Positions 9,327 to 61,728 of a stretch of DNA of 64,000 nt are shown here, piece by piece. The notes below the pieces were generated by a model. That model was given only the letters and a program-made list of their open reading frames with translations, was not told the DNA's origin and did not search any database. Location: the NCBI GenBank assembly GCA_020773975.1, contig GCA_020773975.1_3638.1. One strand, 5' to 3'. The translations under genes were made by a program, and so were the position numbers. This DNA is from a phage. Positions within the stretch are counted from its first letter, which is position 1; every line of letters begins with the position of its first letter.

Positions 9327-9644
9327 CATCAGTTCAGAGAGTTCGTTACGCTCTCCCGCACCATTACGTGCATAGCCACAAGATTTCTCCTGTGGGTCGG
9401 ACTATCTCATCCTCCTGATATTAAGGAGGCCTCCCGTTTCGACCGCACTTGCTGGCCTACTCTACTCGCTTTCACATTACTAGTGTGCTTTCGATAGTCT
9501 CTGAACGTTCATCCCATAGGGATGCTTCGCTGCGGATTAGCATATTGAACTTTTGCTACTTTTACGTATAAAAGCCAGCTTAGCCTTCCCGTCAATTAGA
9601 GAGGTTTTCGACATGCATTACTGCATGAAGCCACAATGTTATTT
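9327..9644 (-). ncRNA. putative self-splicing group I intron in the DNA polymerase gene (no ORF)
   Basis: 318 nt between codon His (9645-9647) and codon Asp (9324-9326); joining gives ...VIYYH|DEIQV in frame; 5' exon ends in U, insert ends in G; GUGG 11 nt into the insert can pair with exon CCAU giving a U-G wobble at the splice site. Confidence 0.5.
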
Positions 9645-16613: not shown

Positions 16614-17080
16614 ACTCCCCCCAACTCTTGTTTTAACTCAATATTTTCTTTTAACAGGGCATCCACAAAAGCTAATATGTGAACAAGAGAACTATGACAA
16701 CCATTAGCATATAGTTCGGCTTCTACACGCTTTTTCAATTCTGCGCCATAGCCGCCTAAGTTGTCGAGATGCTCTTTAATTTTATCATAAGCATCTCGTT
16801 TTCCTCTTAGCTCATTAATAATGTACAGAACATTATCTGGGCTTGCGGTGGCAATGTAACTGGCATCGTAGTCATTTTGCCAGTGAGATAAATTCCCGGT
16901 TCCCTCATGTCTCTTTGCCGGACCCATTTTAGGATCTGTGATGAAAACAGTTTCTATTTTATTATCATTTTGGAATGATACCATTGCATGTCCATGGCTA
17001 TCTATCCACCAGTGCCCTCTGGTGGCTTTCTTTGCCAGTTTCTCAATATCTCCGATTAAGATATCAGCTTTTGTCTGCAT
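16610..17080 (-). CDS. hypothetical protein
   Basis: 156 aa; overlapping stop/start with neighbours. Confidence 0.5.
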   Translation of the reverse strand: MQTKADILIGDIEKLAKKATRGHWWIDSHGHAMVSFQNDNKIETVFITDPKMGPAKRHEGTGNLSHWQNDYDASYIATASPDNVLYIINELRGKRDAYDKIKEHLDNLGGYGAELKKRVEAELYANGCHSSLVHILAFVDALLKENIELKQELGGV

Positions 17081-17390
17081 TGATATCCTCCTTCTTCAAG
17101 ACTAAACTTGCTCTTGAGATCTCAGAAGAAACATACTCTATGTGACTAATCACATATGTCGTTACTTCGCTTCCATCGCCAAAAATATTATCAAGATCTA
17201 CGATAACAAGATCACCATTCTCCGGTTTTTCTACATCCTCGGATAAGATGATAACAGCTTCTGCAACCTCACCAGATTGGTTGAGACGCAGTGTAATATC
17301 GTGACCATTACCCCTATACTTAGTAAAATCAAAAACTTTTTCTGCTTTTTGGTGTGGTGGGAAAAACCACTTAAAGAGCTTCTTCAACAT
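17064..17390 (-). CDS. hypothetical protein
   Basis: ORF-track ORF in co-directional array. Confidence 0.45.
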   Translation of the reverse strand: MLKKLFKWFFPPHQKAEKVFDFTKYRGNGHDITLRLNQSGEVAEAVIILSEDVEKPENGDLVIVDLDNIFGDGSEVTTYVISHIEYVSSEISRASLVLKKEDINADKS

Positions 17391-23579: not shown

Positions 23580-23754
23580 TGTTTTGTTTCTCTTTAACAA
23601 TAGGTGCTTTCTGAACAGAGTATACAAATGTTTTATTGTCTTCAATAAACTTTCTGCCCTGTTCTTCATCTTCAAAAATAATTGTGTCACACTTTGCCTT
23701 TAACATACCACGTTCTACAGTTGTGTGTGTCGTAGAAACAATTAAAGCCATCAA
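23566..23754 (-). CDS. hypothetical protein
   Basis: 62 aa, translationally coupled to neighbours. Confidence 0.35.
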   Translation of the reverse strand: MMALIVSTTHTTVERGMLKAKCDTIIFEDEEQGRKFIEDNKTFVYSVQKAPIVKEKQNNDYD

Positions 23755-24785
23755 GACACCTCGTTAAGTTGTTCCATGTACCAACTACGGGCTTTATTTG
23801 TTGTAAATTTTGCCACGTCTTTCATAGAAAGAGAATTGGCTTCTAACACATCTGCTTCTTCTTTGTTGATATCGCGGTTAACCCATGCGATAAATGCCCC
23901 CAGAGATGCGATGTCCAATCCAATTTCTTGCAACCCTTGTCGTAAACGGTTCTCAGTAACTGCATACTCCACAAAATCTTTGATAGATTGCAGTTTCACA
24001 GGATCAACAGCAGCCAGGGTTTTCACTTTAGAAACAGAATGTTTTTGCCCTTTCACTTTAAACCAAAGTGCAGAAACATGTGCCAAGTGGCGATCTTTAG
24101 GTGTCCATACCACACCCTCACCAACACCAGATACGCCAAAATATTTACCTACTGGACACTCTTTTTCCACACCTTCGGTAATCTGTGCAATTTCTGATTG
24201 CACTGTCTCTGGCATGTTAAAAGGAATATCCAGTTCCCACTTACCAAAAGTTAAAATATTATAAATACGTTGTTCTGGTAATCCAATGCCAAGAATATCG
24301 TTTAAAGCTAACCATTTCCGATGGTCATTCTCTTTTCCTACTGCCACACGGAAAATAGTAAAGAAAGGCATGATTTCAGATACCGCAACACCTTTCTGGA
24401 TACCTTTCCCTGCAAATTCCCCAGCGATTTCTACTGGGAACTTAAATTCAATACCACGATCTTCGCAGATCTGTTTGACTTGCTCCAACAGGCCTTTAGG
24501 GTCTTTTTCAACCATAAAGGCCATAAACCCATAATTATCTTCTTCCAGAGACAAAACGCGTTCTTTGGACTGGTATACAACCTCATTTTCAGAATTAAAG
24601 ACTACACGGCAATTAGTCCCGTGAATTTTAACTGTTCCTACATAAGGAATGAGATATTGGTCTGGAGAGGCAACCTTACGCTTTATATTGCCATTCTCAT
24701 CACGACCATCATAAGTCAGACGGTCATTAACCGCTCGGATAACATTGCGAAATTGACTAGTGCTTGGGTACTTAGTTGCTTGCAT
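23751..24785 (-). CDS. RNA ligase 2 family (T4 Rnl2-like)
   Basis: Nucleotidyltransferase lysine motif VKIHGTN (KxHGxN) near the N-terminus; 344 aa, same size class as T4 Rnl2. Confidence 0.7.
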   Translation of the reverse strand: MQATKYPSTSQFRNVIRAVNDRLTYDGRDENGNIKRKVASPDQYLIPYVGTVKIHGTNCRVVFNSENEVVYQSKERVLSLEEDNYGFMAFMVEKDPKGLLEQVKQICEDRGIEFKFPVEIAGEFAGKGIQKGVAVSEIMPFFTIFRVAVGKENDHRKWLALNDILGIGLPEQRIYNILTFGKWELDIPFNMPETVQSEIAQITEGVEKECPVGKYFGVSGVGEGVVWTPKDRHLAHVSALWFKVKGQKHSVSKVKTLAAVDPVKLQSIKDFVEYAVTENRLRQGLQEIGLDIASLGAFIAWVNRDINKEEADVLEANSLSMKDVAKFTTNKARSWYMEQLNEVS

Positions 24786-25158
24786 TACTATCTTCCTTAT
24801 TAATAAAAGTCACACCAAGAGTTGCCTGGGCAAGAAGTTTCGTGATCTCCTGGCTCCATACAGGACTGGAGATAAAATGTTGTAATTGGAGGCTACCTAA
24901 GCGATAGGCGCTGTTCATCGTAATAGCATAGATCTCCCCATCGTGCATAATCAGACTTTCGACAACAGAAGTCCTGATATTAGAACCACTAAATCCACGC
25001 TTTTTGAGGTCATCTGCTAAGTATCCGCAGATACAACGCACATCTTTTGTATCACCAAAACCGAAATAGGGTTCAGCACCAAACAGGATACCAGCGTATC
25101 TCTTCCCACAGACATAAGTATCTTTAGATACGCCTGTTACAGATTTACTTTCCATCAT
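24772..25158 (-). CDS. hypothetical protein
   Basis: ORF-track ORF in co-directional array. Confidence 0.5.
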   Translation of the reverse strand: MMESKSVTGVSKDTYVCGKRYAGILFGAEPYFGFGDTKDVRCICGYLADDLKKRGFSGSNIRTSVVESLIMHDGEIYAITMNSAYRLGSLQLQHFISSPVWSQEITKLLAQATLGVTFINKEDSNASN

Positions 25159-25340
25159 TGTCCCTCCACATCGTCAATATCTTCCATACCATCTTGCCAC
25201 AGAACTTCATAGCAAGCGTCATAAATTGCGCTCATAGCATCTTTACGATCTAACACATCTACAATTTTTGGATCAATACTTTTAATTGCTTCCGCAATTT
25301 TATCGTAAGCAATATCAGGATGCATGTTCTCTTTTGCCAT
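25155..25340 (-). CDS. hypothetical protein
   Basis: 61 aa acidic ORF. Confidence 0.4.
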   Translation of the reverse strand: MAKENMHPDIAYDKIAEAIKSIDPKIVDVLDRKDAMSAIYDACYEVLWQDGMEDIDDVEGQ

Positions 25341-25836
25341 CTGGGATCTCCTCTTCGTTTAAGACATAAATTGTCACATCACAATCATGGAGAACAGATT
25401 CTATCATAGTTTCTATGATTTTCCAATCCCCACCTGCTAGTCCAGCACCTATTTTTGGCAGCCCGATCTTATAATCAGACATAAAGCCATCTGTGTGCCT
25501 TTGCAAACAATCTCGCATTGCTGCTAAAGAATCGTAAAGGGCGTTATAATTCAGATCCCTCACACCCATTCTACGCCCATTATATCCGTATTGTGTGTAC
25601 AGATTAAAACCCGCCAGCTTACCTTCGTTCATGACAGCCCAAGTATAACTGCCCAGTTTTGTTCGATCACCTTTCTCTGTCTTTAAATCTTCAGCATACA
25701 TTTTTGGGAATGTATTCTTTATTTCTTTAGCAATTCCAGACCCCATGGTGCAAAATGTATTACAACCATGAGCTATCACATTAACATCCCTTTTAAGTGC
25801 TGCCTCTATTAAGCAACCAACTTTATACTTAAGCAT
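25315..25836 (-). CDS. macro-domain protein (ADP-ribose binding / ADP-ribosyl hydrolase-like)
   Basis: DVNVIAHGCNTFCTMGSGIA (cf. IVNAAN...GGGV) and GLPKIGAGLAGGDW (cf. P.IGTG.GG); start taken at the ATG at 25836 so that it abuts the upstream stop. Confidence 0.65.
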   Translation of the reverse strand: MLKYKVGCLIEAALKRDVNVIAHGCNTFCTMGSGIAKEIKNTFPKMYAEDLKTEKGDRTKLGSYTWAVMNEGKLAGFNLYTQYGYNGRRMGVRDLNYNALYDSLAAMRDCLQRHTDGFMSDYKIGLPKIGAGLAGGDWKIIETMIESVLHDCDVTIYVLNEEEIPDGKREHAS

Positions 25837-26011
25837 TGTCTGATACCTCTTCGCATTCGTATGGATAGATATCCAGTCTTTTCCCATTCCATTCGCAAGA
25901 GTAACACTCAAGAAAACTACCATTAAATATTTCTTCTCTTACTTCAAGAATATCTCCTGTTTTTGGATATCCATCAACATCCGAAAAATCAGAAATCATT
26001 TTAACCTTCAT
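25829..26011 (-). CDS. hypothetical protein
   Basis: 60 aa; part of a chain of translationally coupled small ORFs. Confidence 0.4.
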   Translation of the reverse strand: MKVKMISDFSDVDGYPKTGDILEVREEIFNGSFLECYSCEWNGKRLDIYPYECEEVSDNA

Positions 26012-28631: not shown

Positions 28632-28847
28632 CTAATCCTCCCATTTTATCCATAAAGGGTATTCTGCAACATGCACTTTCTTACCCTTTTTGTTAATAAA
28701 AGTATACTCAACAAACTTTGCTATGTAAAACCTATTGTAATCCTCTGTACCTTTAACAGGACAGTCTGTTTTCCTTCTCTCCACCCATTCTCTGTGGATC
28801 ACCGCTTTGTTCTTTGGATCAAATGGATGTGGTTGATAAACATTCAT
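28632..28847 (-). CDS. hypothetical protein
   Basis: ORF-track ORF in co-directional array. Confidence 0.4.
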   Translation of the reverse strand: MNVYQPHPFDPKNKAVIHREWVERRKTDCPVKGTEDYNRFYIAKFVEYTFINKKGKKVHVAEYPLWIKWED

Positions 28848-29344
28848 TATTTCCCCTCGAATCTTTTTCTTGCATCAGCAAGTTTAAGATGCATTTCATG
28901 GTATTTCTTTAACCTTGCCAAATCCTTATCAGATAAGGATTTAAGACGTTTTACGTCCATATTGTCTTTTAAATCAGCGAGTTTTACACGAATCGCATCA
29001 TAATTAGTACAGATGCCCTCAATGTACTCTTCTTCAGTCAGGCTCTGTTTCTTTGTTAGCAGAAGAACTGCATCTTTTACTCTGTTAGTGAACCCTAACA
29101 TTACCAAATCGTAAGCTGTAACTTTAGTATCCTCAAGGATATCGTGAAGGACACCGATTGCCATTAGCTGTAAGTCATCATTACCAAGTTCATGCATCAC
29201 CCTTAATGGGTGAAGAATGTATGGCATTCCACCACGATCTTTCTGCTTAAGATGGTTTTCAGAGGCCAACTTTACAGCTAAAGCCAACTCCTGATGGGGT
29301 CTTAAATCTTGCATATTACTGGGGACAGACTTCGATTGTACCAT
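28847..29344 (-). CDS. HD-domain (p)ppGpp hydrolase-like protein (small alarmone hydrolase, SpoT/MESH1-type)
   Basis: GGMPYILHPLRV ... AIGVLHDILEDT, matching the RelA/SpoT hydrolase HD motif (H.L.VA ... LLHD..EDT); 165 aa. Confidence 0.65.
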   Translation of the reverse strand: MVQSKSVPSNMQDLRPHQELALAVKLASENHLKQKDRGGMPYILHPLRVMHELGNDDLQLMAIGVLHDILEDTKVTAYDLVMLGFTNRVKDAVLLLTKKQSLTEEEYIEGICTNYDAIRVKLADLKDNMDVKRLKSLSDKDLARLKKYHEMHLKLADARKRFEGK

Positions 29345-30162
29345 TTATATGTCTCTTCCATGTTAAAGGGTTTTATACCGATATTATCAAAATCTACAAG
29401 AGAATCAAGAAAAAATTCTCCTTTGTACCCAGCCATTTCTATCATTGAGCGTTCCTCTTGGGTAGGGATCTCCCCCAAGATAAGCTCTTTTAGCTCCTTT
29501 TCTACAACACGATGGTACATTACTTCTTGGGTATTACACACCAAGTAGTAGTGCGATTTCTTATTCTCTACGTTTGGCGTGTTGGCTATCTTAATTGCAG
29601 CATGACCTACATAATCATACATCTTTGTTTGGTAAAACATTCCATAACAACCCGCCAGAGAAAAGGATCCAAAACTGGAGTTAATCTCCCTGATGTGGAG
29701 AATATCTGGGTTTGTTCTGACATAGGAAGCCTTTATGGAAAACATATTACCATCCCAATGCCCCAATTGGGACAAAACAGACAGGAATTTTTGTGTTCGT
29801 GCAGACAACGATCCTGCTAAACACATTCCATAATTAAAGCCTTGGAAAGAAATTGTTATTTGCCCACAAGTAATATCATAGCTTGAAAACTCATGCGTTA
29901 AGTTTACGCTTGCCATGTAAGCACGCTCGTCAGCTTCAACATAATATTTCCAGTAACATTTCCTATCCCGAGTATCAAAACACATAAGCACAGCATGTTT
30001 TATGAGTTCTATTAAAGGGTTTGGTTCATGGTGGCGACTTTCAACTTCCCTTATAATGGCTTCACGGAATACATTAAAATCTATTTTCATAGATTTTGTG
30101 TGATACAGGTAGGCATCAAAGTAAGAAGAAATGTTTTCGTCAGGTATCTTTGTCATGGTCAA
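29302..30162 (-). CDS. hypothetical protein
   Basis: 286 aa; first gene of the minus-strand block next to the divergent region. Confidence 0.5.
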   Translation of the reverse strand: MTMTKIPDENISSYFDAYLYHTKSMKIDFNVFREAIIREVESRHHEPNPLIELIKHAVLMCFDTRDRKCYWKYYVEADERAYMASVNLTHEFSSYDITCGQITISFQGFNYGMCLAGSLSARTQKFLSVLSQLGHWDGNMFSIKASYVRTNPDILHIREINSSFGSFSLAGCYGMFYQTKMYDYVGHAAIKIANTPNVENKKSHYYLVCNTQEVMYHRVVEKELKELILGEIPTQEERSMIEMAGYKGEFFLDSLVDFDNIGIKPFNMEETYKWYNRSLSPVICKI

Positions 30163-31587: not shown

Positions 31588-33024
31588 ATGCAAAAAGACG
31601 AACATGAAATGATTGCCAAGTTAGAGAAGGATGCTGTAAAAGTTATCCAATCGGCACGAATAGCTCTTTTAAAGTACAGACCATTTTACGGGACTTTGTT
31701 AAGTTCTCTACCCTTAGTTGCTAACTGGAAATGGTTGCCAACAGCAGCGACTGATCACAAAAACCTCTACTTCAACCCTGAGTTTATTATGGGTATGCCT
31801 GAAGAAAGGAAGAAGAAGGTTTTTGAGCGTGTGGATAATCACCCCACAATGACACAACAAGAAAAAGATGACTATAAAGACTATGTGAACGTATTTTATC
31901 GTAAGAAAACACCCAAAGAGGTTGTTGTTATTCTTATGCACGAGCTACGTCATATTACTAACGATCATTTATCCCGTGGAAAAGCATTTGATTCTAAAAC
32001 CTACAACACAGCAGCAGATCATTATATTAACACGGATTTAGTGGTGTCTGATCTTGGGCCACGCTCCAGCCAGATGTGTTTCTTCCCAATGGGGAAACAG
32101 ACAACCTTTGACAAAGGTAAAGAGTTTGGGTTTATGGCTTATTGCTACTGTGATTTTAATTTCCACGGTAAGACAGCGGAGGAGATTTACAGTCTCATAA
32201 ACAAAGGCCAACCGTCTGTTGGTAAACCTATGGGCACACACATAGGTGATTATGATCAAGACAGCAATATCCTAGGATATGAAGATCCTCACCCAGTGCC
32301 AAGCCAAGCAGAAAAAGATGATAATATGTCGTGGTCATCTGGTCTTATCGAGGCCGCGATGGAAGCAGCGGGAGGAGAGGGGCCGAAAGAGGTGCGTGAC
32401 GTTATTGCAAGAATGCGTAAACCACACATAAATTATCTTCAGATAATCAAACAGCGTATGCTTTCTCGGATCAAGTCTAACCTGACATACAGGAAACCAT
32501 CTCGTAGGTCTGGATCTATGACACAGGCACTTCGGCAGTATGGAGCTATTGGAAAAAAACAGCATATTGTTTTACCAGGAAGGGAGTACGATAATACTAT
32601 AGATATAGTTATTGGCTTCGATGTGTCTGGATCAATTTCGAAGGCGAATTTAGACAAAATCTTCGGAGAAATTGTAGGATTATGCCAGCTTTACCGCGTT
32701 TTTCGCGTGACATTGTTCTGTTGGTCAACAAAAGTCGGAGAGGTTAAAGTTTATACACATGATAATATCAAGGAAATGCTTGATTATAAAGTAAATTCTA
32801 CGGGTGGGACACTTGCAGCATCGGCTTTTGAGTATATTGAAAATAACATTTTTGATGCAAAAGACGTTATTATTTTTACAGACGGATATATAGAGGATTT
32901 AAGACACAAGAAAAAAGATTGGGGACGCAAATGGGATATTCTTTGGGTTATTTGTGGTCGCGGAAATAATAAATTTGTACCACCTTTCGGAAGGGCTGTA
33001 AATTTAGATGAACACGCAAAATAA
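31588..33024 (+). CDS. vWA-domain protein with N-terminal putative metallopeptidase-like domain
   Basis: HExxH-type motif LMHELRHI; MIDAS motif IVIGFDVSGSIS and FTDGY; 478 aa; candidate partner of the MoxR-like ATPase. Confidence 0.65.
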   Translation: MQKDEHEMIAKLEKDAVKVIQSARIALLKYRPFYGTLLSSLPLVANWKWLPTAATDHKNLYFNPEFIMGMPEERKKKVFERVDNHPTMTQQEKDDYKDYVNVFYRKKTPKEVVVILMHELRHITNDHLSRGKAFDSKTYNTAADHYINTDLVVSDLGPRSSQMCFFPMGKQTTFDKGKEFGFMAYCYCDFNFHGKTAEEIYSLINKGQPSVGKPMGTHIGDYDQDSNILGYEDPHPVPSQAEKDDNMSWSSGLIEAAMEAAGGEGPKEVRDVIARMRKPHINYLQIIKQRMLSRIKSNLTYRKPSRRSGSMTQALRQYGAIGKKQHIVLPGREYDNTIDIVIGFDVSGSISKANLDKIFGEIVGLCQLYRVFRVTLFCWSTKVGEVKVYTHDNIKEMLDYKVNSTGGTLAASAFEYIENNIFDAKDVIIFTDGYIEDLRHKKKDWGRKWDILWVICGRGNNKFVPPFGRAVNLDEHAK

Positions 33025-33539: not shown

Positions 33540-33740
33540 GATCAAATTAAACTAACTTATAAGATCTATTAAATATAATACTACGTATTATAATACTATG
33601 ATCTATTTAATATAATATATTATACTACGTATAATATAATTTAATATGATCTAATATAATATAATATAAATTATATAATATAATTTAATATAATACTACG
33701 TATTATATATTATAATATATATATTATATAAAATTTATTT
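33540..33740. repeat. AT-rich iteron region (candidate origin of replication)
   Basis: About 200 bp of roughly 90 percent A+T with three copies of GATCTA(T)TTAATATAATA and three copies of ACTACGTAT. Confidence 0.6.
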
Positions 33741-45960: not shown

Positions 45961-46190
45961 GCGCTGCGCCAAATCTCGAGCGGTTCTCGATCACAATAGC
46001 TGTAGGATATTTTCAAAACATCCGAATTTCCATCGACACCCCCAGCTCATCTGCCTGTCACCTCTGAGATAAAGCTGTAGATATTTTCACTCCTCACATC
46101 ATGCACAAGTTAATACATGCAAGTCTTTACAGACAGGGGTGGGTGGTGTAAAATACCTGTGCCAACAGTACAAAACACAGAGGAGGTTTA

Positions 46191-47651
46191 GTGGCAAAAC
46201 AGTTCTTTGACAAACATTACATGGAAACGCATTTTGTAGAGAAACCTCTGCATCGCCTGAACTTTACAGATTTAGAAGGAATGAGGTTTGGCAAGATAAC
46301 GGTGCACAAACTTAACAGAAGAGAGGATAAGTCTTTTGTGTGGTGGTGTACGTGTGATTGTAACCCATCCAGATATTTTATGGTTGTGCCTTACTCACTT
46401 AAAACAGGGGTGACAACATCTTGTGGTTGCAATTATAAAACTAATGGAGGGAATATACATGAAACACTCCAAGAGTTTCAAAAGAAAGTTGGTGGTGATT
46501 GGGAGATTATCTCATACCAAGGTAGAAAGCACGATTGTGTTGCCAAATGTACTATGTGTGGGAGTATTGTCACCAAACAAGGTGGCTCATTTATCTGCGG
46601 TGTGACGTGCCATTGCACTGATAAAAGAATAAAGAGGCGTGATGATATTTTGCATCTTGCGGGGTACAGTCTGATCAAAGAAGAGAAAGTTCAACAGCAG
46701 AATGGTGAATATATAATGCACTTGCGCTGTAAATCTTGTGGTGTTAAGAAACTGACGCGAAACACGGAGTTAAGGGATTTAAAGCCATGCCTGTGTAGAG
46801 GCGACCACACCAACAATGGGAAACCTTGCGCCATTTACCTGCTTTCACATAAAGATGGTAAGTATTGTAAGATTGGTAGGTCTTATAGCCCCTCCTCAAG
46901 ATTACGTATGATTAATGGTTCTGGTGGCGACTTTATATTGGAGCATGTTTGGTGGACACCTAACTATCACTACGCATCTGTGCTGGAGACAACACTCCAC
47001 AGGGAATTTTCTGAGCATCGCTTTGACGCTGGTGGTTTCGATGGGAGCACAGAGTGTTTCTACATAAAGCCTGACAAATTGGCAAAAGGAATATCTGAGA
47101 TAGTCGCCAAGTTGGTTGGGGATTACAAACCTGAAGATGGGGTGTTGACAAAAGATGTGAAGATAAGGAATAACTACAAGAACAGCGGTATGATTGTGAA
47201 GTCTAGGAGTTATCACTTCAAAGAGTCAGATGTGTGTTTGTGGATACCTTATAAAGGGTATCTCAGAAAGAAGAGATCCCCATTCTCCTCTTGGGAGATG
47301 GCAGAAGAGTGTCACTATTTAGCTGCAAATGTGCAGCCTTCCAAAAACTTAGATAGGTTTAAAATTTATGATGTGGATGGGGTTACTGACTCCATAGCAG
47401 GTTGGTCAAGGAGAACTGGAATCCCTGCTCAGACACTTACGTGGAGAATGCAACGCACAGGCATGACAATGAAAGAGGCGATTAATTATTGCAGACCAGA
47501 CACTGTTATTTGGTGTGGCGGGAAAATGGTTAAGAAGAGAGATCTTAAAAGCATTATCGGTGTTTCTTGGGAGTCGGTTTATACAGCATCCAGAAAAAGC
47601 AAGAAGTCCCCAGAACATATTATAGAAGAAATACTGAAAAGGGCCACTTAA
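46191..47651 (+). CDS. T5orf172 (GIY-YIG superfamily)-like protein with N-terminal Cys-rich Zn-finger repeats and C-terminal HTH-like module
   Basis: GTG start 4 nt after AGGAGG; core AIYLLSHKDGKYCKIGRSYSPSSRLRMING ... EHVWW ... ETTLHREF ... GSTECFYI; several CxxC/CxC clusters upstream; C-terminal GVTDSIAGWSRRTGIPAQTLTWRMQRTGMTMKEAI. Confidence 0.55.
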   Translation: MAKQFFDKHYMETHFVEKPLHRLNFTDLEGMRFGKITVHKLNRREDKSFVWWCTCDCNPSRYFMVVPYSLKTGVTTSCGCNYKTNGGNIHETLQEFQKKVGGDWEIISYQGRKHDCVAKCTMCGSIVTKQGGSFICGVTCHCTDKRIKRRDDILHLAGYSLIKEEKVQQQNGEYIMHLRCKSCGVKKLTRNTELRDLKPCLCRGDHTNNGKPCAIYLLSHKDGKYCKIGRSYSPSSRLRMINGSGGDFILEHVWWTPNYHYASVLETTLHREFSEHRFDAGGFDGSTECFYIKPDKLAKGISEIVAKLVGDYKPEDGVLTKDVKIRNNYKNSGMIVKSRSYHFKESDVCLWIPYKGYLRKKRSPFSSWEMAEECHYLAANVQPSKNLDRFKIYDVDGVTDSIAGWSRRTGIPAQTLTWRMQRTGMTMKEAINYCRPDTVIWCGGKMVKKRDLKSIIGVSWESVYTASRKSKKSPEHIIEEILKRAT

Positions 47652-48336
47652 GGCCCGTTGTGTTGTTGGTATGGGACACCCGACTTACCATTGACCAGGT
47701 AAACCAATATCAAGGCCAAATTCGTGACACTCATCCCAGTCAAGACTTTGATTCCAGTTTGTAACTGTCCTCTCTGTGTGGTGGGTGTATGATGCTCTCC
47801 GTGACTGCTTTGGCATCTTTTTTGTCTGAGATTTCCCGAAAAGAGGTGTGTTGTCATTGAGTCTTCCGGCAGCCTTTTCACCCTTTTTGACTTGTCTCCC
47901 ACGGGCATTCCACTGCTCCAGTGTCCTGTAACACATAAAATCATTCTCCTGTAATATCTGGTGTGGGGATAATGACAGATTGTACCAGAGGTGTCAAGTC
48001 TGTTGACCAGAGTGTGTGGGAGGGGTGTCGCTATAAAAAATTTTTGGAGAGCTTTCTATGGTTTATTCTGTAGCTTCAGACAGGCCATAAACCCAGATGT
48101 GACGGGGCTTTCAGCTATGTTGTGTGTTGATCGCAAATAAGGATAAAATAATCAATATAAATGCAGATAAATGTTGTTTTATTGTGTTTGTGTAACTGGG
48201 GTGTCATGTCTTGATAGGTTATGACCTGTACATATTTTGTACAGAAGTGTGGTGTGCAGAGTGGAGGTGGCAATTCCCCAGACGGGGGTGGGGGTAGGTC
48301 ATGGTGGAGAGCAGGGGCATGGTTAGCCCCATATGA

Positions 48337-53133: not shown

Positions 53134-53326
53134 GCAACCCTCGCTTGTGCCTGTACATTGCTAGGGGCCATACAGAACTCACTATAAAGCATTTCCATGC
53201 CCAACCCCATGCAGTTTTTGGTGCATATACCTGCTCAAGTATTTTACTATTCTCCATCTCTGCGGTATGTACAAACCATACAGCAATATACAATGTAACT
53301 ATAATGTAGATAAAGCCATTAATCAT
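53108..53326 (-). CDS. small membrane protein
   Basis: 72 aa, two hydrophobic segments. Confidence 0.35.
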   Translation of the reverse strand: MINGFIYIIVTLYIAVWFVHTAEMENSKILEQVYAPKTAWGWAWKCFIVSSVWPLAMYRHKRGLHEEKTGTA

Positions 53327-54380
53327 TCATCTTATCCCAACACATTTGTTGTGCTGTCATCAAAACATCGGCAGCAAAGTTAAGATCTGTTGTTTTCGGT
53401 AAATGCGTGTTCTTGTACAGAGTGTTACGAATATAATCATCCTTCTCTTCTGCCCAAGCCAAGAGCTTCTCCAAAGACCATGCGCCATTCCTGATTGCAA
53501 GAAGCTCCTGAGCATCAGGTCTTTTTACTAAGACTTTCCCTTCCGTCAGGATTTCTTCCGCTTGACGCATCAGCCTAACCAAGTGCATACCATGCTTTGA
53601 ATCGAAGCCATACTTTTCTTCTAACTCATGACGTGCTGGGTTTCTGTTTTCAACCCATGTCCAGTAGTTCTTATGCTTTTCCTTTGCTTGTTTATGCTCA
53701 TCTGCCAGATATTTAACGATTAAAATTGGCTTACGTTTCTTATCTTCGTCAGAGAACTGCTCGTATGGAACTTTACGAATAGAACCATCAGAGTTAAACA
53801 AACCAGCATTGTCGCGTGTTCCGATTACACCATAGATATTATCACCCATGGGTAAAAAGACACACAACTTGTTAAGATCATCCAACATTTTCTGGAAGTC
53901 TTTGTGTTTTGTAAGATTATCATCCATCCACGAGTGTGTCAAGCGCATGAACTCTTTTTGTGTTGGTTGCTCTTTAGGCTGCGGGTTATTAATCCATTTA
54001 TTATGGCCTTTGATACGCTTCAGTTGCGCCATCGCATACCCAGAAAAAGTAAAAGCAACTTTACTGGATAGGAGTTTTGGCGCTTGCTCGCGTAGGTACT
54101 CGTAAACATCTGAAGTTTGCAGAATGTCACTTCTATCAACAAACATAAGCTCGATGATGTTTGGGTTCATATCAACGAACAACTTCATGTAGTTTGTTAG
54201 CTCATACAGCTTACCATCCTCTTCATCAATAAGAGTCATTTCTCTGTCAACGAAAAACGGGGTAAGAATGCTTTTAGGCTCTGCACAATAAATTCCGCGA
54301 ATATCCACATCGGATGTTGGTAAGTTAGTTCCATAGGCAATGCTACCACTGTAGCAGCGCATTAGTTCTAGTTTCTTCAT
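53319..54380 (-). CDS. nucleotidyltransferase-fold protein (Pol-beta-like NTase superfamily)
   Basis: GSIAYGTNLPTSDVDIRGIY = GS...G...SDxD signature of the minimal nucleotidyltransferase fold; 353 aa. Confidence 0.55.
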   Translation of the reverse strand: MKKLELMRCYSGSIAYGTNLPTSDVDIRGIYCAEPKSILTPFFVDREMTLIDEEDGKLYELTNYMKLFVDMNPNIIELMFVDRSDILQTSDVYEYLREQAPKLLSSKVAFTFSGYAMAQLKRIKGHNKWINNPQPKEQPTQKEFMRLTHSWMDDNLTKHKDFQKMLDDLNKLCVFLPMGDNIYGVIGTRDNAGLFNSDGSIRKVPYEQFSDEDKKRKPILIVKYLADEHKQAKEKHKNYWTWVENRNPARHELEEKYGFDSKHGMHLVRLMRQAEEILTEGKVLVKRPDAQELLAIRNGAWSLEKLLAWAEEKDDYIRNTLYKNTHLPKTTDLNFAADVLMTAQQMCWDKMND

Positions 54381-54757
54381 TCTTGTACCTTTGTGCTTTT
54401 TCTTACATTATCCCAAAAATCAAGGATATTTTGGTAACGGATTTTGTCTTCCATATATTCAGCTTCATCCCGAAGATCGCACACATGTTCTATTAAGGCA
54501 CACACTTCATTGTGGTATGTTGTATCACTTGTGATGTGCTTAATCATACAAGATCCTGCTTTCCACTTTGAAAGTGAGTATCTCAGATTATCATCTTTCT
54601 CTGTTGGAAAAGCATCAACTAGCACCTTTGCCCTATTCCCTTGTATCGTTTGTATTGTTCCTTGGCGCAACTCGTTTCCACCCCAATAGATAAACACAGT
54701 ATCACCAACAAATAATCTAGTTCCACTTGCGTCTCTCATTTTATGCCTCCAACCCAA
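54377..54757 (-). CDS. hypothetical protein
   Basis: 126-aa ORF, ATGA overlap with the downstream gene. Confidence 0.45.
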   Translation of the reverse strand: MGWRHKMRDASGTRLFVGDTVFIYWGGNELRQGTIQTIQGNRAKVLVDAFPTEKDDNLRYSLSKWKAGSCMIKHITSDTTYHNEVCALIEHVCDLRDEAEYMEDKIRYQNILDFWDNVRKSTKVQE

Positions 54758-55085
54758 AGAAATAATAAATTGTTACCGCTGCAAAGTAAAGTGTTTTGGA
54801 AATCAGCCGTAACCAACAATCTCTGTTTGTATACACTTTTCCTGCTAAGATATTACTACCTGTTACGATATGTCCCCACACCCACACACCAAACAGGAAT
54901 CCTCCTAGCAAACCCCCTGTTGGTGGTGTTAATGTGGTAATCATTGCAATACCTTCTAGGATGGTGAATATGAAGAAATATGAGAATGCCTCTCTTACAC
55001 ATTTTATTCCTTTGCCAGTAACGCAGGTATTGACTAAACCTATAAGACAAAAGATCGTCCAAAGTACATACAATGTATAAACCAT
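54741..55085 (-). CDS. integral membrane protein
   Basis: Four predicted TM helices. Confidence 0.45.
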   Translation of the reverse strand: MVYTLYVLWTIFCLIGLVNTCVTGKGIKCVREAFSYFFIFTILEGIAMITTLTPPTGGLLGGFLFGVWVWGHIVTGSNILAGKVYTNRDCWLRLISKTLYFAAVTIYYFFGLEA

Positions 55086-55150
55086 AAACCACTTAACCCC
55101 GAGAATGTTAACCTCTCCAACCCTATCAGAGAGGTTTCAGAAATGATCTG

Positions 55151-55561
55151 TTACTCACCTTTCAGCTTAAAACTTTTCAATGTTTTGATAAAGTTTTTCT
55201 CTGCTGGTGTGTAAGTGTGAACGAAACCTGTTTCTTCACAGGTGTAGGTATCATTAACCTCCATTGCGTGTGGAGGGATAAATGCACCATCAGGAACAGA
55301 CTTATATTCCGGGTTGTAGATAAATTCCGGCAGTACAACAGCTACAGCAGTCATTGCTCCGTTCAAGGCTTTCTTTTCTTCACGCCACCACGCTACTGGG
55401 TAAGTCTCTAAAGACATTGCCTGGGTAAGAAAATCTTCAAGCACGGACTGATAACCGCCATTCAAAACAATAATGGTCTTATCTTCTTCTTTCCAGCATT
55501 TCAGCCAATGGTGTGCAGTGATCTGCTCTGGTGTATATGCTTCACCACTATGCAAAACCAT
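55151..55561 (-). CDS. hypothetical protein, possibly PTH2 (peptidyl-tRNA hydrolase 2)-like; 5' end uncertain
   Basis: The 27 in-frame codons upstream of the ATG encode ...YISGIHAGIQSAHAIAEL (cf. the PTH2 motif GK.AAQC.HAA) with no ATG/GTG/TTG; downstream WLKCWKEEDKTIIVLN also recalls PTH2; weak. Confidence 0.4.
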   Translation of the reverse strand: MVLHSGEAYTPEQITAHHWLKCWKEEDKTIIVLNGGYQSVLEDFLTQAMSLETYPVAWWREEKKALNGAMTAVAVVLPEFIYNPEYKSVPDGAFIPPHAMEVNDTYTCEETGFVHTYTPAEKNFIKTLKSFKLKGE

Positions 55562-55639
55562 AAGCTCTGCAATGGCGTGTGCTGATTGGATACCCGCATG
55601 GATACCGGAGATATATTGATTAACAATACATTCTTGTTT

Positions 55640-55858
55640 TCATTTTTGTTTTTTCCTCAGAATTATTCTATCTTCACTAAAAATTTCCTGTAACCCAGCA
55701 GCAATCAGAGCAAATATTGCTACCCACCATACAACTAACAGGAGTGCCCCAACAAGCAAATCTCTACCTGTGATCTGTTGCTCAATCCTGTAGGTAAAAA
55801 TAAAGAAAGCTACGGATACTAAAGCACCAACAAAGAAGTAGATAAACACTTCAGTCAT
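55640..55858 (-). CDS. small membrane protein
   Basis: 72 aa, two TM helices; in frame with 55151-55561 across a single TGA. Confidence 0.4.
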   Translation of the reverse strand: MTEVFIYFFVGALVSVAFFIFTYRIEQQITGRDLLVGALLLVVWWVAIFALIAAGLQEIFSEDRIILRKKQK

Positions 55859-56186
55859 TATCTCTTTTCTCCAAATCCCGTTTCTCCAAGTATCCTTTTA
55901 CCATAAGTGCTACAGCGTAAATCCCCACAAGACAAATACAAAATGTGAAAATAATAGGTAAAACCATTACCGCAAACATCATAAATAGCGGTCCTGCAAC
56001 AGTAATGAATGCTTCTCCAAGCAACAGCAAAAATACTACATATTTATTTGCCGTCTCATCCACCTTCTTAAGATACACACCTAAACACACAGAAGACAAC
56101 AGGAATGACAGAATGGACAGCAATAGATACCAATTATCAATAAAGATGATAATTGGACCAGCAACATTTTCTAACCACCACATCAT
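55851..56186 (-). CDS. integral membrane protein
   Basis: 111 aa, three TM helices. Confidence 0.45.
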   Translation of the reverse strand: MMWWLENVAGPIIIFIDNWYLLLSILSFLLSSVCLGVYLKKVDETANKYVVFLLLLGEAFITVAGPLFMMFAVMVLPIIFTFCICLVGIYAVALMVKGYLEKRDLEKRDND

Positions 56187-56200
56187 ATATACTTACCTCT

Positions 56201-57445
56201 TTAGAATAACATATCTCTGCTGATTGCTTTACGAATAGCATCAATACGGGCTACTCGCACAGCTTCACCAATCTCTTTACCCTTCTTACCCTTTTCCAGA
56301 AGGGGTTTTGTTATAGCTTTAGAATCAACTTTTGTCATAGCGTCGTAGGCTTCCAACAAAAAATGACCTTGAAGATAAGGTTTATGTCTAAAATCACCAC
56401 CTCTTCCTTTAGCATCACAATAACACGCATCTGCAAGTGTGTAAACCTTCATTTTCTGGTCAGCTTGTCCAGCAGCTTCAAATATTTTCATGATGCTTTT
56501 TGGTTTCAAACCGTTGTTACCATCTCTGGGAGAGATGGTGTGCACTTTTGTGTGATTTTCTGCAACATATTTTGCCGTGTCACGATAGATATTATAAATC
56601 TTCAACCTTTCACACAAGGATTGGATAACATCTACCCCAGCTTTCTCATGACCATGAAGATTACCATTGTCCTTGTAAGTTATAGCTTTGCCAAAATCAT
56701 GGCACAGCACAGCAAACTTGGTCAGTGGATCAGCTTCTAATTCATCAGCAACCCGTAACGCTAGAATTGTATGGGTGTAAGCATCCCCCTCTGGGTGATG
56801 TTCTTTAGGTTGTTGCACACGACGTAGGGCTTCCAGTTCAGGAAGTTCGCCAATACGTCCCATATTGACAGCAAAAGACCTGAAATAACCACTCTTTAAG
56901 GCTTTCAACATTTCCTTCCATTTACGATAGGCGCTTATTTCTGCCAAAGAGTGTCGGTTGTCATAAGCCAGTTTAAAAGTTTCTGGATGGATATGCCATT
57001 CTTCCCCAAGCTGGGCTTTAAATCTAAACAGGCGTAGAATACGTAATGGATCTTCAATAAACGCCTCCGATGTATGACGTAATGTTTTAAGTCCTAAGTC
57101 AACCTGACCACCAAAAGGATCAATAATCTCACCACTGTCAACATCCATCGCCATGGAGTTGATGGTAAGATCTCTACGTGCCAAATCCTCTTCCAGAGTT
57201 ACATCTGGACTAAAGCATACCTCAAATCCTTTATGGCCTTCGCCTGTTTTTCTTTCTGTGCGTGCAAGAGCGTACTCTTCTTTTGTTTCTGGGTGAAGAT
57301 AAACTGGAAAAGATGCGCCAACTTGTGTGAACCCTCTTTTCAGCATCTCTTCATGCGTAGCACCAACAACCACATAATCACGGTCTGATATTTCACGACC
57401 TAACAATTTATCTCTTACTGCGCCACCTACCAAGTATACCTTCAT
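56201..57445 (-). CDS. cca: tRNA nucleotidyltransferase (CCA-adding enzyme) with HD domain
   Basis: From ATG 57445: MKVYLVGGAVRDKLLG...DRDYVVVG (class II CCA motif, cf. E. coli Cca MKIYLVGGAVRD as recalled), RRDLTINSMA, HD motif VLCHDFGK; about 415 aa. Confidence 0.8.
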   Translation of the reverse strand: MKVYLVGGAVRDKLLGREISDRDYVVVGATHEEMLKRGFTQVGASFPVYLHPETKEEYALARTERKTGEGHKGFEVCFSPDVTLEEDLARRDLTINSMAMDVDSGEIIDPFGGQVDLGLKTLRHTSEAFIEDPLRILRLFRFKAQLGEEWHIHPETFKLAYDNRHSLAEISAYRKWKEMLKALKSGYFRSFAVNMGRIGELPELEALRRVQQPKEHHPEGDAYTHTILALRVADELEADPLTKFAVLCHDFGKAITYKDNGNLHGHEKAGVDVIQSLCERLKIYNIYRDTAKYVAENHTKVHTISPRDGNNGLKPKSIMKIFEAAGQADQKMKVYTLADACYCDAKGRGGDFRHKPYLQGHFLLEAYDAMTKVDSKAITKPLLEKGKKGKEIGEAVRVARIDAIRKAISRDMLF

Positions 57446-57768
57446 TTCTTCGCCCACGTATTCATATAATTAACAATATCTTTTACGGTTCTCTTTCCGT
57501 CCAGTGGATAAACCATGTCATCGCTCATCCCACCGTGTTTTAGCATTGCTACCAGTCTAGTATATACCTCTTTTGGTCTTTTGCAAGTTCTTTTCTTCCA
57601 TTTATGACCGTCTGGGAAGTACTCCTTATCTTCAAGAGAGATATGAAGGATGTCCCCTATAAACTCTTTAGCCTGTGTGCTGTAAAGTGGACGGTGGAAT
57701 ATGTAGAATTTCATTGCTTGCTCCTTTGTTGTAATAACAATATCAGTGCAAGCCACCTGTGTCAACAC
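57442..57768 (-). CDS. hypothetical protein
   Basis: ATGA overlap with cca. Confidence 0.4.
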   Translation of the reverse strand: MLTQVACTDIVITTKEQAMKFYIFHRPLYSTQAKEFIGDILHISLEDKEYFPDGHKWKKRTCKRPKEVYTRLVAMLKHGGMSDDMVYPLDGKRTVKDIVNYMNTWAKK

Positions 57769-57803
57769 ATAAAGAAAAACCCGCTAAAAAGCGGGTTAAT
57801 CTC

Positions 57804-60942: not shown

Positions 60943-61728
60943 TTATGATGCCATTGGTGTGTAAATACCTTTATCTCTGTCTTTCAACAATCCCTTGGCG
61001 ATCTCCTTGACAACACCACCACGGACTACATCCTGTAGTTGATTAAATTGAACAATACCTACACCAGAAATATTATGTCTGTGGAGAAAATCTTCAACCC
61101 ATTCCAAACCAGAGACACCACGTATATCTTTTTGACTTTCATCTCCCATGATGACAAGAGTGCAATTATCTGAAATACGAGTTACAATACTCAGCATTTC
61201 TTCTGGAGTGCTTTGTTGTGCCTCGTCAATCAGTAGAAAGCTGTTTTCATCAAACGACCTTCCTCTAATACTCTCCAACTCTTGCACCTCGATACGTCCA
61301 TGCAGTCCATCTTTCAATGAATTATAATACGCCCCATCACCCATTCTTTTACGAATTGTATCGAGCATATTCCTTACGTAAGGATATAGTTTCTCCAGAG
61401 TAGAACCAGGTTTGAAGCCCGATGTCTTTCCCGTTTGCACATATGGCCTTGCCACAATGATTTTATCTATCTCGTTTTTCCTGAGAAGATCTGCTGCATA
61501 TGCAGAGGCGAGATATGTTTTTCCTGTTCCAAAAATCCCTTTGGCTATAATGATGTTACATGTCTTAAGTTTTTGGAGATAATCTTGTTGTTTTTTATTC
61601 ATAGCAACAAGTGCTGGGGCGCTGTTTCTATCTTCCTCAAACTTAGGGTTGTATTTCATCTTTCTTTCAGCACGTTCTTTCTTCCTTGCTGCAAGTTTTA
61701 AAGCACGCGTCTCTTTGCTTCTTCCCAT
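60943..61728 (-). CDS. phoH: PhoH-like ATPase
   Basis: Walker A GIFGTGKTYLA, ARPYVQTGKTSGFKPGS, Walker B LIDEAQQSTPEEM, VIMGDESQ; AAGGAGA SD. Confidence 0.8.
   Translation of the reverse strand: MGRSKETRALKLAARKKERAERKMKYNPKFEEDRNSAPALVAMNKKQQDYLQKLKTCNIIIAKGIFGTGKTYLASAYAADLLRKNEIDKIIVARPYVQTGKTSGFKPGSTLEKLYPYVRNMLDTIRKRMGDGAYYNSLKDGLHGRIEVQELESIRGRSFDENSFLLIDEAQQSTPEEMLSIVTRISDNCTLVIMGDESQKDIRGVSGLEWVEDFLHRHNISGVGIVQFNQLQDVVRGGVVKEIAKGLLKDRDKGIYTPMAS

Follow-up and report, generated by a model that had tools for sequence, protein, structure and literature searches.

The stretch of phage DNA considered here (contig GCA_020773975.1_3638.1 of GenBank assembly GCA_020773975.1; 64,000 nucleotides, hereafter the window) carries on its minus strand an operon that encodes a CCA-adding enzyme, a hydrolase of the PTH2 fold and a nucleotidyltransferase of the RlaP family. 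The window belongs to a Vequintavirinae (Avunavirus-like) coliphage, and its segment 53319-57457 shows 90-94% nucleotide identity to the Escherichia phages Av-05 and vB_EcoM_TH18 (TH18). We consider it fairly probable that these genes form an accessory operon for the repair of tRNA acceptor ends, and of RNA 3' ends generally. The operon would be an enlarged form of a mobile cassette of three genes, namely those for the CCA enzyme, the PTH2-fold hydrolase and RlaP.

Layout and enzymes of the operon

The features of the operon and of the other genes discussed are shown in Table 1. All genes from ~47.6 to 64 kb lie on the minus strand, and those of the operon follow one another on this single strand with stops and starts that overlap or are closely spaced. 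The promoter-like site in the table, which is a consensus match only, was the top site in the 12 kb scanned and lies just after the hairpin; the transcription unit is thus likely to start in the region 57737-57797. The stop of the 90-aa gene overlaps the start of the CCA gene, and this small gene is conserved 5' of the CCA gene in Vequintavirinae-like loci with 47-58% identity. The first-pass annotation of this DNA, which was made from the sequence alone, had placed two small membrane-protein genes between the CCA enzyme and a PTH2-like open reading frame (ORF), and these are the 111-aa and 72-aa genes of Table 1. The former stands outside the conserved core and is absent from the compact cassettes of two unrelated phages described below (L037, L038). 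The operon is also a mosaic: the 72-aa membrane protein shares 42% identity with its counterpart in Av-05 and 93% with that in TH18, and for the PTH2-like hydrolase beside it the values are 97% (Av-05) and 82% (TH18). These identities suggest recombination at gene boundaries.

Table 1. Features of the operon and of related genes in the window
Feature	Position	Strand	Basis
Terminator-like hairpin	57797-57778	-	sequence inspection
Sigma-70-like promoter match, TTGACA-17-TATTGT, TG upstream	57765-57737	-	10/12 consensus matches
90-aa gene, first of the unit, PHROG 7526	57442-57714	-	ATG at 57714, AAGGAG ribosome-binding site before the ATG
CCA-adding/repair enzyme, 414 aa	56201-57445	-	Pfam, NCBIfam, motifs
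Small hydrophobic membrane protein, 111 aa	55851-56186	-	PHROG 'membrane protein'
Small hydrophobic membrane protein, 72 aa	55640-55858	-	PHROG 'membrane protein'
PTH2-fold hydrolase gene, frameshifted	55151-55643	-	comparison with Av-05 and TH18
Small membrane protein, 114 aa, variable among relatives	54741-55085	-	PHROG, locus comparison
DUF7205 protein, 120 aa when read from the ATG that relatives use	54377-54739	-	homologue alignment, model
RlaP-family Pol-beta nucleotidyltransferase, 353 aa	53319-54380	-	Pfam PF10127, PHROG 388
Divergent Rnl2-like ATP-dependent RNA ligase, 344 aa	23751-24785	-	Pfam, TIGR02307, motifs
Macro-domain protein, DarG-like	25315-25923	-	Pfam Macro 2e-4; NCBIfam DarG 2e-9
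HD-domain small-alarmone-hydrolase-like protein, 165 aa	28847-29344	-	phmmer against PDB; PHROG 990
PhoH-like ATPase, peripheral	60943-61728	-	profile matches; 3.5 kb upstream, same strand

The protein encoded by the CCA gene matched the Pfam families PolyA_pol (PF01743; E 5e-22), HD (1e-7) and PolyA_pol_RNAbd (4e-5). Against the NCBIfam model NF008137, 'multifunctional CCA addition/repair protein', it gave an E value of 3e-124 with positions 1-404 of the 409 in the model aligned; its score of 414.7 bits is below the equivalog cut-off of 451, a narrow miss that is expected of a diverged phage copy. Motif A (GGxVRD...DxD, here GGAVRD...DRD) is GGAVRDKLLGREISDRD at residue 7, motif B is RRDLTIN at residue 90 and motif D is EDPLRILR at residue 131, and the motif HHPE...CHD of the HD domain, of the metal-binding form H...HD, lies at residues 216-250. 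The relatives of the protein in the PDB are class II CCA-adding enzymes and poly(A) polymerases; the top models for it were those of CCA enzymes, and PcnB models scored far lower. That is, judged by its sequence, the protein is a class II CCA enzyme of the E. coli type with a nucleotidyltransferase head, an RNA-binding body and a C-terminal HD phosphohydrolase domain, as the first-pass annotation had proposed, and its specificity for C, C and A is predicted from the nearest models. The likeness to E. coli Cca (NF008137) is collinear and full-length and includes the HD domain and all of the motifs named above. The phage protein differs in scoring just under the equivalog cut-off, and its gene in being phage-borne and linked to the PTH2-like and RlaP genes.

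A PTH2-like motif, GIHAGIQSAHA, had been reported in frame upstream of an ORF two genes away from the CCA enzyme. The motif is real; it lies before the first ATG, with which the listed ORF 55151-55561 begins, and, in translation, is in frame with the stop codon of the preceding membrane gene and follows it directly. In Av-05 (gp065) and TH18 (peg160), the PTH2-like gene is an intact ORF of 165 aa that starts at an ATGA overlap. Compared with both phages, the window has a deletion of 5 bp at ~55630/55631, which removes one copy of a TGTAT tandem repeat; TGTAT-TGTAT, intact in Av-05 and TH18, is a classic slippage site. The reading from the ATG at 55643, which is preceded by a GAGGA ribosome-binding site, runs for seven codons to a premature TAA at 55622-55620, and the remainder of the PTH2-like domain lies in the +1 frame and ends at 55151. 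Thus, the motif stands upstream of the first ATG because the 5-bp deletion frameshifts the 165-aa gene, and what had been read as a PTH2-like ORF is a gene that is no longer intact.

We considered two other causes of this arrangement. The Logan assembly of the public read set SRR16760863 (L036, SRR16760863_62) agrees with the window at 100% identity along 9,245 bp and has the same 5-bp deletion, so that the frameshift is unlikely to be an artefact of one assembler, with the reservation that this second assembly may derive from the window's own reads. A programmed frameshift or readthrough was rejected, because the relatives have a plain 165-aa ORF and the short frame ends in TGT-TAA without a slippery context. 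From its sequence, the PTH2-like gene of this phage is probably non-functional.

The assignment of the hydrolase family itself was then considered. Against Pfam PTH2 (PF01981), the hydrolase scored 17.9-19.1 bits, below the threshold of 23 (E 0.002-0.004). Of 133 diverse representatives of the family, 18 matched PTH2 at E<=0.01 (best 1.3e-4), and no other family recurred. Searches of the PDB sequences by hmmsearch with family profiles of 46 and 133 sequences found no Pth2. In a fold comparison, the hydrolase agrees with the alpha/beta fold of Pth2, and the proposed link of the family to Pth2 comes only from this comparison and the weak Pfam matches. Some GenBank records label members of the family 'peptidyl-tRNA hydrolase' or 'hydrolase', and the record for the member in Klebsiella phage Muenster gives an HHpred value of 97% to 2ZV3. 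The family comprises at least 2,417 clusters at 50% identity (E<=0.001), which are mostly unannotated.

The residues Y12, G19, Q21, H24, E90 and T100 are invariant in the family. Residue 17 is H in the clade of this phage and Q in the consensus of the wider family, and one member has M; the clade also has an extra C-terminal segment of ~55 residues. In an hhalign comparison of low confidence with Pth2 of S. solfataricus, residue 17 fell at Lys18 and E90 at Asp86, which we take from published mutagenesis to be the catalytic residues of Pth2 (S. solfataricus numbering). In the same low-confidence alignment, AGIQxAH of the family was in register with AAQxAH of Pth2. Over single Pth2 sequences the register was consistent and the hhalign probability very low, and the mapping of the catalytic residues is tentative. 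On this tentative mapping, the family would lack the catalytic Lys of Pth2, having H, Q or M instead, and would have Glu in place of Asp. Because the Lys appears to be replaced and the PTH2 score is below the threshold, the substrate may differ; that is, the chemistry of the hydrolase, and possibly its substrate, may not be those of canonical Pth2. Compared with archaeal and eukaryotic Pth2/Bit1 (PF01981; PDB 1wn2, 1xty, 2zv3 and 1q7s), then, the phage proteins are set apart by these two apparent substitutions, by the C-terminal extra of ~55 residues, by the score below the Pfam threshold and by forming a large separate family.

At the far end of the operon, the first-pass annotation had seen a minimal nucleotidyltransferase with a GS...SDxD motif, 1.5 kb away. 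The gene product is indeed a nucleotidyltransferase, with the catalytic motif GS...DVD (GSIAYGTNLPTSDVD at residue 12), but with 353 aa it is not minimal and it belongs to the RlaP family, which was reportedly defined by Burroughs and Aravind in 2016 (NAR). The match to Pfam PF10127 had an E value of 2e-14 and 54.2 bits against a cut-off of 23; this alignment covers only positions 22-140 of the 249 in the model, that is, the N-terminal half, and the match to PHROG 388 is full-length (E 3e-79). No PDB sequence matched the protein. It is 56% identical over its full length to the nucleotidyltransferase of Vibrio phage 496E54-1 whose gene comes after the PTH2-like one. The distance of 1.5 kb was only approximate: the start of the gene is 1.8 kb away from the CCA gene, and 0.77 kb separate it from the PTH2-like ORF.

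RlaP stands here with RNA repair genes, namely the CCA enzyme in the same operon and the Rnl2-like ligase elsewhere in the same genome. The enzymes from Pseudomonas, the only ones for which this was shown, add 1-2 NMPs to RNA 3'-OH ends, prefer damaged tRNA mimics and help to restore aminoacylation, and the RlaP homologue of T4 is NrdC.11 (PMC12776372). The bacterial RtcB-RlaP-RtcA operons of Pseudomonas (PMC12776372) resemble the present one in that an RlaP-family nucleotidyltransferase lies inside an RNA repair operon. In contrast to them, the partners here are the CCA enzyme and the PTH2-fold hydrolase, not RtcB and RtcA, and the Rnl2-like ligase of this genome would require a 5'-phosphate, which is chemically compatible with the 3'-OH product of RlaP.

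Between the hydrolase and RlaP lies the gene for the DUF7205 protein, which is confined to Vequintavirinae-like phages. A first search for homologues gave four near-identical matches only, and homologues were then sought with an alignment from the related loci. The model of the protein is a beta-barrel of the SH3/Tudor/KOW type with a C-terminal helical hairpin. Structure comparison returned a generic SH3/Tudor/KOW-like barrel and no specific function. The model is compatible with a binding or adaptor subunit, which DUF7205 may be, but is not specific to one.

Linkage of the genes in other phages

The order of the genes for a ClpP-like protein, a methyltransferase, p90 and the CCA enzyme was the same in all 11 Vequintavirinae-like loci, except that L012 had no p90 match. 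Ten of these 11 loci continue from the CCA gene to the PTH2-like gene and then to RlaP; the remaining one (L007) had no RlaP match. The DUF7205 gene lies between the PTH2-like and RlaP genes except in L012. Across the 11 loci, the identity of the PTH2-like protein falls as low as 39%, and the small membrane genes come and go.

The same three enzymes also recur on other backbones. In Rheinheimera phage Barba19A (85 kb) and Vibrio phage 496E54-1 (137 kb) (L037 and L038), the genes for the CCA enzyme, the PTH2-like protein and a PF10127 nucleotidyltransferase are directly contiguous, with stops and starts that overlap or nearly abut. The CCA and PTH2-like genes form a pair in L017, and L020 has the order CCA enzyme, one further gene, PTH2-like protein and RNA ligase (Rnl). 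The loci with the cassette share the cassette only, and their flanks are mutually unrelated. This conserved order and the direct adjacency of the three genes in unrelated phages bear out the proposal of the first-pass annotation that the genes form a tRNA-maintenance set.

Thg1 is a polymerase that repairs the 5' end of tRNA. Another nine loci have a Thg1 gene no more than 2.6 kb from the PTH2-like gene, and in L029 the stop and start of the two overlap. The PTH2-like gene thus has as neighbours three nucleotidyltransferases of tRNA ends, namely the CCA enzyme, RlaP and Thg1, and this pattern of gene neighbourhoods is the best evidence that the family may act on tRNA.

Of 29 related loci, 18 have a PhoH gene no more than 10 kb away from the PTH2-like gene; they come from two different phage groups, the Vequintavirinae-like phages and the unrelated group with Thg1. 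This proximity may be a recurring association or may reflect the mere commonness of PhoH in phages. In the group that carries Thg1, the order is SpoVR, PhoH, PTH2-like, Thg1 and ThyA (PhoH loci L016, L018, L019, L022, L024, L025, L027 and L029). One of these, L018, is a viral contig of 363 kb with the PTH2-like, Thg1 and PhoH genes; it also carries a tmRNA at 16731-17115 with the tag AANDAFFEETRLAA, that is, another translation-rescue element nearby.

RNA ligase and other features of the window

The RNA ligase gene at 23751-24785 had been called Rnl2-type, and this assignment stands with the addition that, by sequence, the protein is Rnl2-like but divergent. It matched Pfam RNA_ligase (PF09414) at 2e-9, with 38 bits against 27, and the Rnl2 model TIGR02307 at 2e-8, with 34 bits against a cut-off of 197 over positions 27-314 of 326. 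The motifs are I (KIHGTN at residue 53), III (GEF, 122), IV (EGVV, 223) and V (FKVK, 242). T4 Rnl2 was the sole PDB sequence match, and the TH18 record labels the homologous ligase 'RNA ligase 2'.

An Rnl2-type ligase needs 3'-OH and 5'-phosphate ends. In a Pfam scan of 33 ORFs of the window of 138-670 aa, which left ORFs of <138 aa and the two longest ORFs (9639-12056 and 12210-15182) outside, no 5' polynucleotide kinase was found. Therefore, a complete pathway for the repair of anticodon breaks is not demonstrated. Two PHROG labels in this part of the window were set aside: that of 'thymidylate kinase' for 29302-30162, which has no Walker A motif and no Pfam or PDB match, and that of 'methyltransferase' for 24772-25158 near the ligase, which was uncorroborated.

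The gene for the macro-domain protein is located three genes upstream of the ligase, and the protein is most similar to the ADP-ribosyl glycohydrolase DarG, an antitoxin. From its family, the protein could reverse ADP-ribosylation by defence toxins or could process ADP-ribose phosphate arising from RNA repair, and its membership in the repair set is uncertain. The HD-domain protein encoded at 28847-29344 matched PDB 7smg, '(p)ppApp hydrolase', at 1e-25 and also the hydrolase domains of RelA/SpoT and MESH1 (phmmer), and was missed by Pfam at E<0.001; the TH18 record calls its homologue a ppGpp pyrophosphohydrolase. This peripheral protein could counter alarmone-synthetase toxins, some of which pyrophosphorylate the CCA ends of tRNA.

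Several further observations concern the window as a whole. Its synteny with TH18 breaks at 33575-33654: positions 1-33575 are the reverse complement of TH18 32128-1, and positions 33654-64000 match TH18 79452-110988 in the forward orientation. This implies an inversion of ~80 kb or an assembly difference in one of the records. To the right of the break, Av-05 is arranged as in TH18. Because of this rearrangement, the pair of NAD salvage genes, for nicotinamide phosphoribosyltransferase and ribose-phosphate pyrophosphokinase, is located outside the window (Av-05, L032, 10571-13159; TH18, L034, 26396-28984). At 46073-47684, the window has ~1.6 kb that is absent from TH18; the gene there (46191-47651, plus strand, 486 aa) has T5orf172/MUG113 (GIY-YIG-like) domains and looks like an inserted gene of the homing-endonuclease type or another mobile gene. 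The gene at 31588-33024 (plus strand), at the boundary of divergent transcription, encodes a 478-aa protein that combines a VWA-like domain with a putative metallopeptidase domain (DUF2201).

Proposed role of the operon

On the basis of the observed families, folds, gene order and linkage, we predict the activities of the enzymes by homology and infer a counter-defence purpose as follows. The HD domain of the CCA enzyme would remove 2',3'-cyclic or 3'-phosphates, by analogy with E. coli Cca, and the head domain would rebuild a missing C, C or A on the 3' ends of tRNAs. Where the loss at an RNA 3'-OH end exceeds what the CCA enzyme can restore, RlaP would add 1-2 untemplated nucleotides; the site of this addition may be the acceptor end, or a broken anticodon loop before it is sealed. 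The PTH2-fold hydrolase would free the 3' end of a peptidyl, aminoacyl or N-blocked aminoacyl group and thereby make repair or recharging possible, a step that would be lost in this phage owing to its frameshifted gene. The distant Rnl2-like ligase would seal nicked tRNA with 3'-OH and 5'-phosphate ends, and DUF7205 may serve as a small binding subunit of this phage lineage. As a result, the tRNAs of host and phage would remain chargeable while the infection proceeds; the most plausible opponents are immune effectors whose targets are tRNA ends. Among such effectors, Cas12a3 cleaves the CCA tails of tRNAs in anti-phage defence (PMC12851939), and toxSAS toxins pyrophosphorylate the CCA end (PMC11559606).

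A further-reaching proposal, which we hold only tentatively, is that the three genes form a self-contained mobile cassette for the repair of the acceptor end. That is, the hydrolase would clear acyl blocks, RlaP would put back the discriminator or other nucleotides that are missing, and completion of the end would fall to the CCA enzyme, with Thg1 as an alternative partner on the 5' side. Such a cassette would directly answer attacks on the acceptor end, such as those of Cas12a3 and toxSAS, extension of the MenT type and the acetylation of aminoacyl-tRNA of the GNAT type.

Several points weigh against the repair operon that we propose. The hydrolase falls short of the Pfam threshold and, on the tentative mapping, has a remodelled active site. 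The gene is frameshifted, and therefore this phage evidently propagates without a functional hydrolase. Three unrelated small membrane genes are interspersed among the enzymes, and the ligase lies 29 kb away in a separate gene block. The E. coli host has its own Cca enzyme. Phage rV5, of the same subfamily, is without a CCA enzyme (PMC7344957), and the module is thus dispensable within this subfamily.

In a more general explanation, enzymes for the turnover of tRNA ends are simply the phage's own housekeeping set and sustain translation under high demand after host shut-off, with no specific immune opponent. It is well established that E. coli Cca routinely repairs CCA ends trimmed by exonucleases (cited in PMC12851939), and such phages carry other functions of self-sufficiency as well, such as NAD salvage, ribonucleotide reductase and tRNA genes; loss of the hydrolase, as seen here, does not prevent propagation. 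However, the RlaP enzymes that have been studied sit in RNA repair operons of the damage response (PMC12776372), and the cassette, like other accessory genes of conflict, is mobile and has a patchy distribution. Neither of these points is decisive, and we regard housekeeping as a serious rival explanation, although an unlikely one.

The remodelled active site raises the question of whether the PTH2-fold protein is a tRNA hydrolase at all. It may instead act on another ester or on a nucleotide-linked adduct, in which case the process shared by the three enzymes would be a different one. In the tentative alignment, however, its motifs keep the register of Pth2 (AGIQxAH against AAQxAH, and E90 at Asp86), and its recurrent neighbours are the three enzymes of tRNA ends named above. 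We therefore think that a substrate other than tRNA is rather unlikely.

The usual explanation of a phage CCA enzyme in genome papers, such as that on RaK2 (PMC3622015), is that it matures the phage's own CCA-less tRNA transcripts; its neighbours in the operon would then be unrelated to it. At first sight this would fit the close relative TH18, which is 90-97% identical in nucleotide sequence to the window and encodes 16 tRNAs. However, all of these tRNA genes (16/16) already encode the 3' CCA, and the window contains no tRNA gene. Because the CCA is encoded, its de novo synthesis is not required, which leaves repair or maintenance as in the case of E. coli Cca. Thus, the gene sequences favour a role of the CCA enzyme in repair over one in maturation. 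The CCA gene also travels with the PTH2-like and RlaP genes in unrelated phages, and we judge maturation to be quite improbable. The tRNA block of TH18 lies at 19815-25486 of L034 (TH18 69.8-75.5 kb), outside the range of the window, and is unannotated in the GenBank record.

Finally, that the genes are chance neighbours without a joint function in a gene-dense phage genome, as the interspersed membrane genes and the distant ligase might suggest, is very improbable indeed, since the three enzymes are found side by side again and again on unrelated backbones that have only the cassette in common, and their order is conserved down to 39% identity.

The first-pass annotation had described the combination of enzymes as different and partly uncharacterised, and this is overstated, the combination not being new. 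In the part of the text that was available, Iyer et al. (2021; PMC7824862) count RNA ligases, RlaP, the CCA enzyme, Thg1, PTH2, Macro and PhoH among the RNA-repair genes of jumbo 'and related smaller' phages. For phage RaK2, a CCA enzyme was reported in 2013 alongside Pnk, an RNA ligase and Pth2 (PMC3622015), and RlaP has now been characterised biochemically (PMC12776372). The present genome resembles the jumbo-phage sets, as far as the available text describes them (PMC7824862), in its Rnl2-type ligase, RlaP, CCA enzyme, PTH2, Macro and PhoH, with Thg1 in related loci, and the purpose proposed there is likewise the restoration of tRNAs damaged by host RNases. In contrast to those sets, this coliphage, at 130-140 kb, is not a jumbo phage and has its CCA enzyme, PTH2-like protein and RlaP in one operon; the available text reports phyletic co-occurrence and ties RlaP to ligases, not to the CCA enzyme. 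No Pnk or phosphatase was seen in the window.

The well-known repair of PrrC-cleaved tRNA-Lys by Pnkp and Rnl1 of T4 is similar in that a phage pathway heals and seals damaged host tRNA. The present phage differs from T4 in that no homologue of Pnkp or Rnl1 was seen, the enzymes are predicted to act on 3' ends (CCA addition, fill-in of 1-2 nucleotides and deacylation), and the ligase is Rnl2-like. The contiguous cassette of the CCA enzyme, PTH2-like protein and RlaP, and the pairing of the PTH2 fold with Thg1, were not found in the literature covered, in which Burroughs and Aravind (2016) was not included, and we claim no priority for them. The operon is thus the established reading of phage RNA repair applied to a new genome, and for the most part a correct annotation of an accessory module of a known type.

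Bacterial immunity is increasingly seen to target the ends of tRNAs, through CCA-tail cleavage by Cas12a3, CCA pyrophosphorylation by toxSAS and anticodon nucleases. The combination of a CCA enzyme, a fill-in polymerase of the RlaP family and a PTH2-fold hydrolase suggests a dedicated route of acceptor-end repair, unlike the kinase-phosphatase-ligase route of T4. The naturally inactivated hydrolase of this phage shows that the step is dispensable under at least some conditions. With three small soluble proteins and clear substrates, the cassette is a compact and testable system, and it offers an entry point to the function of a large, unannotated PTH2-fold family with what appears to be a remodelled active site.

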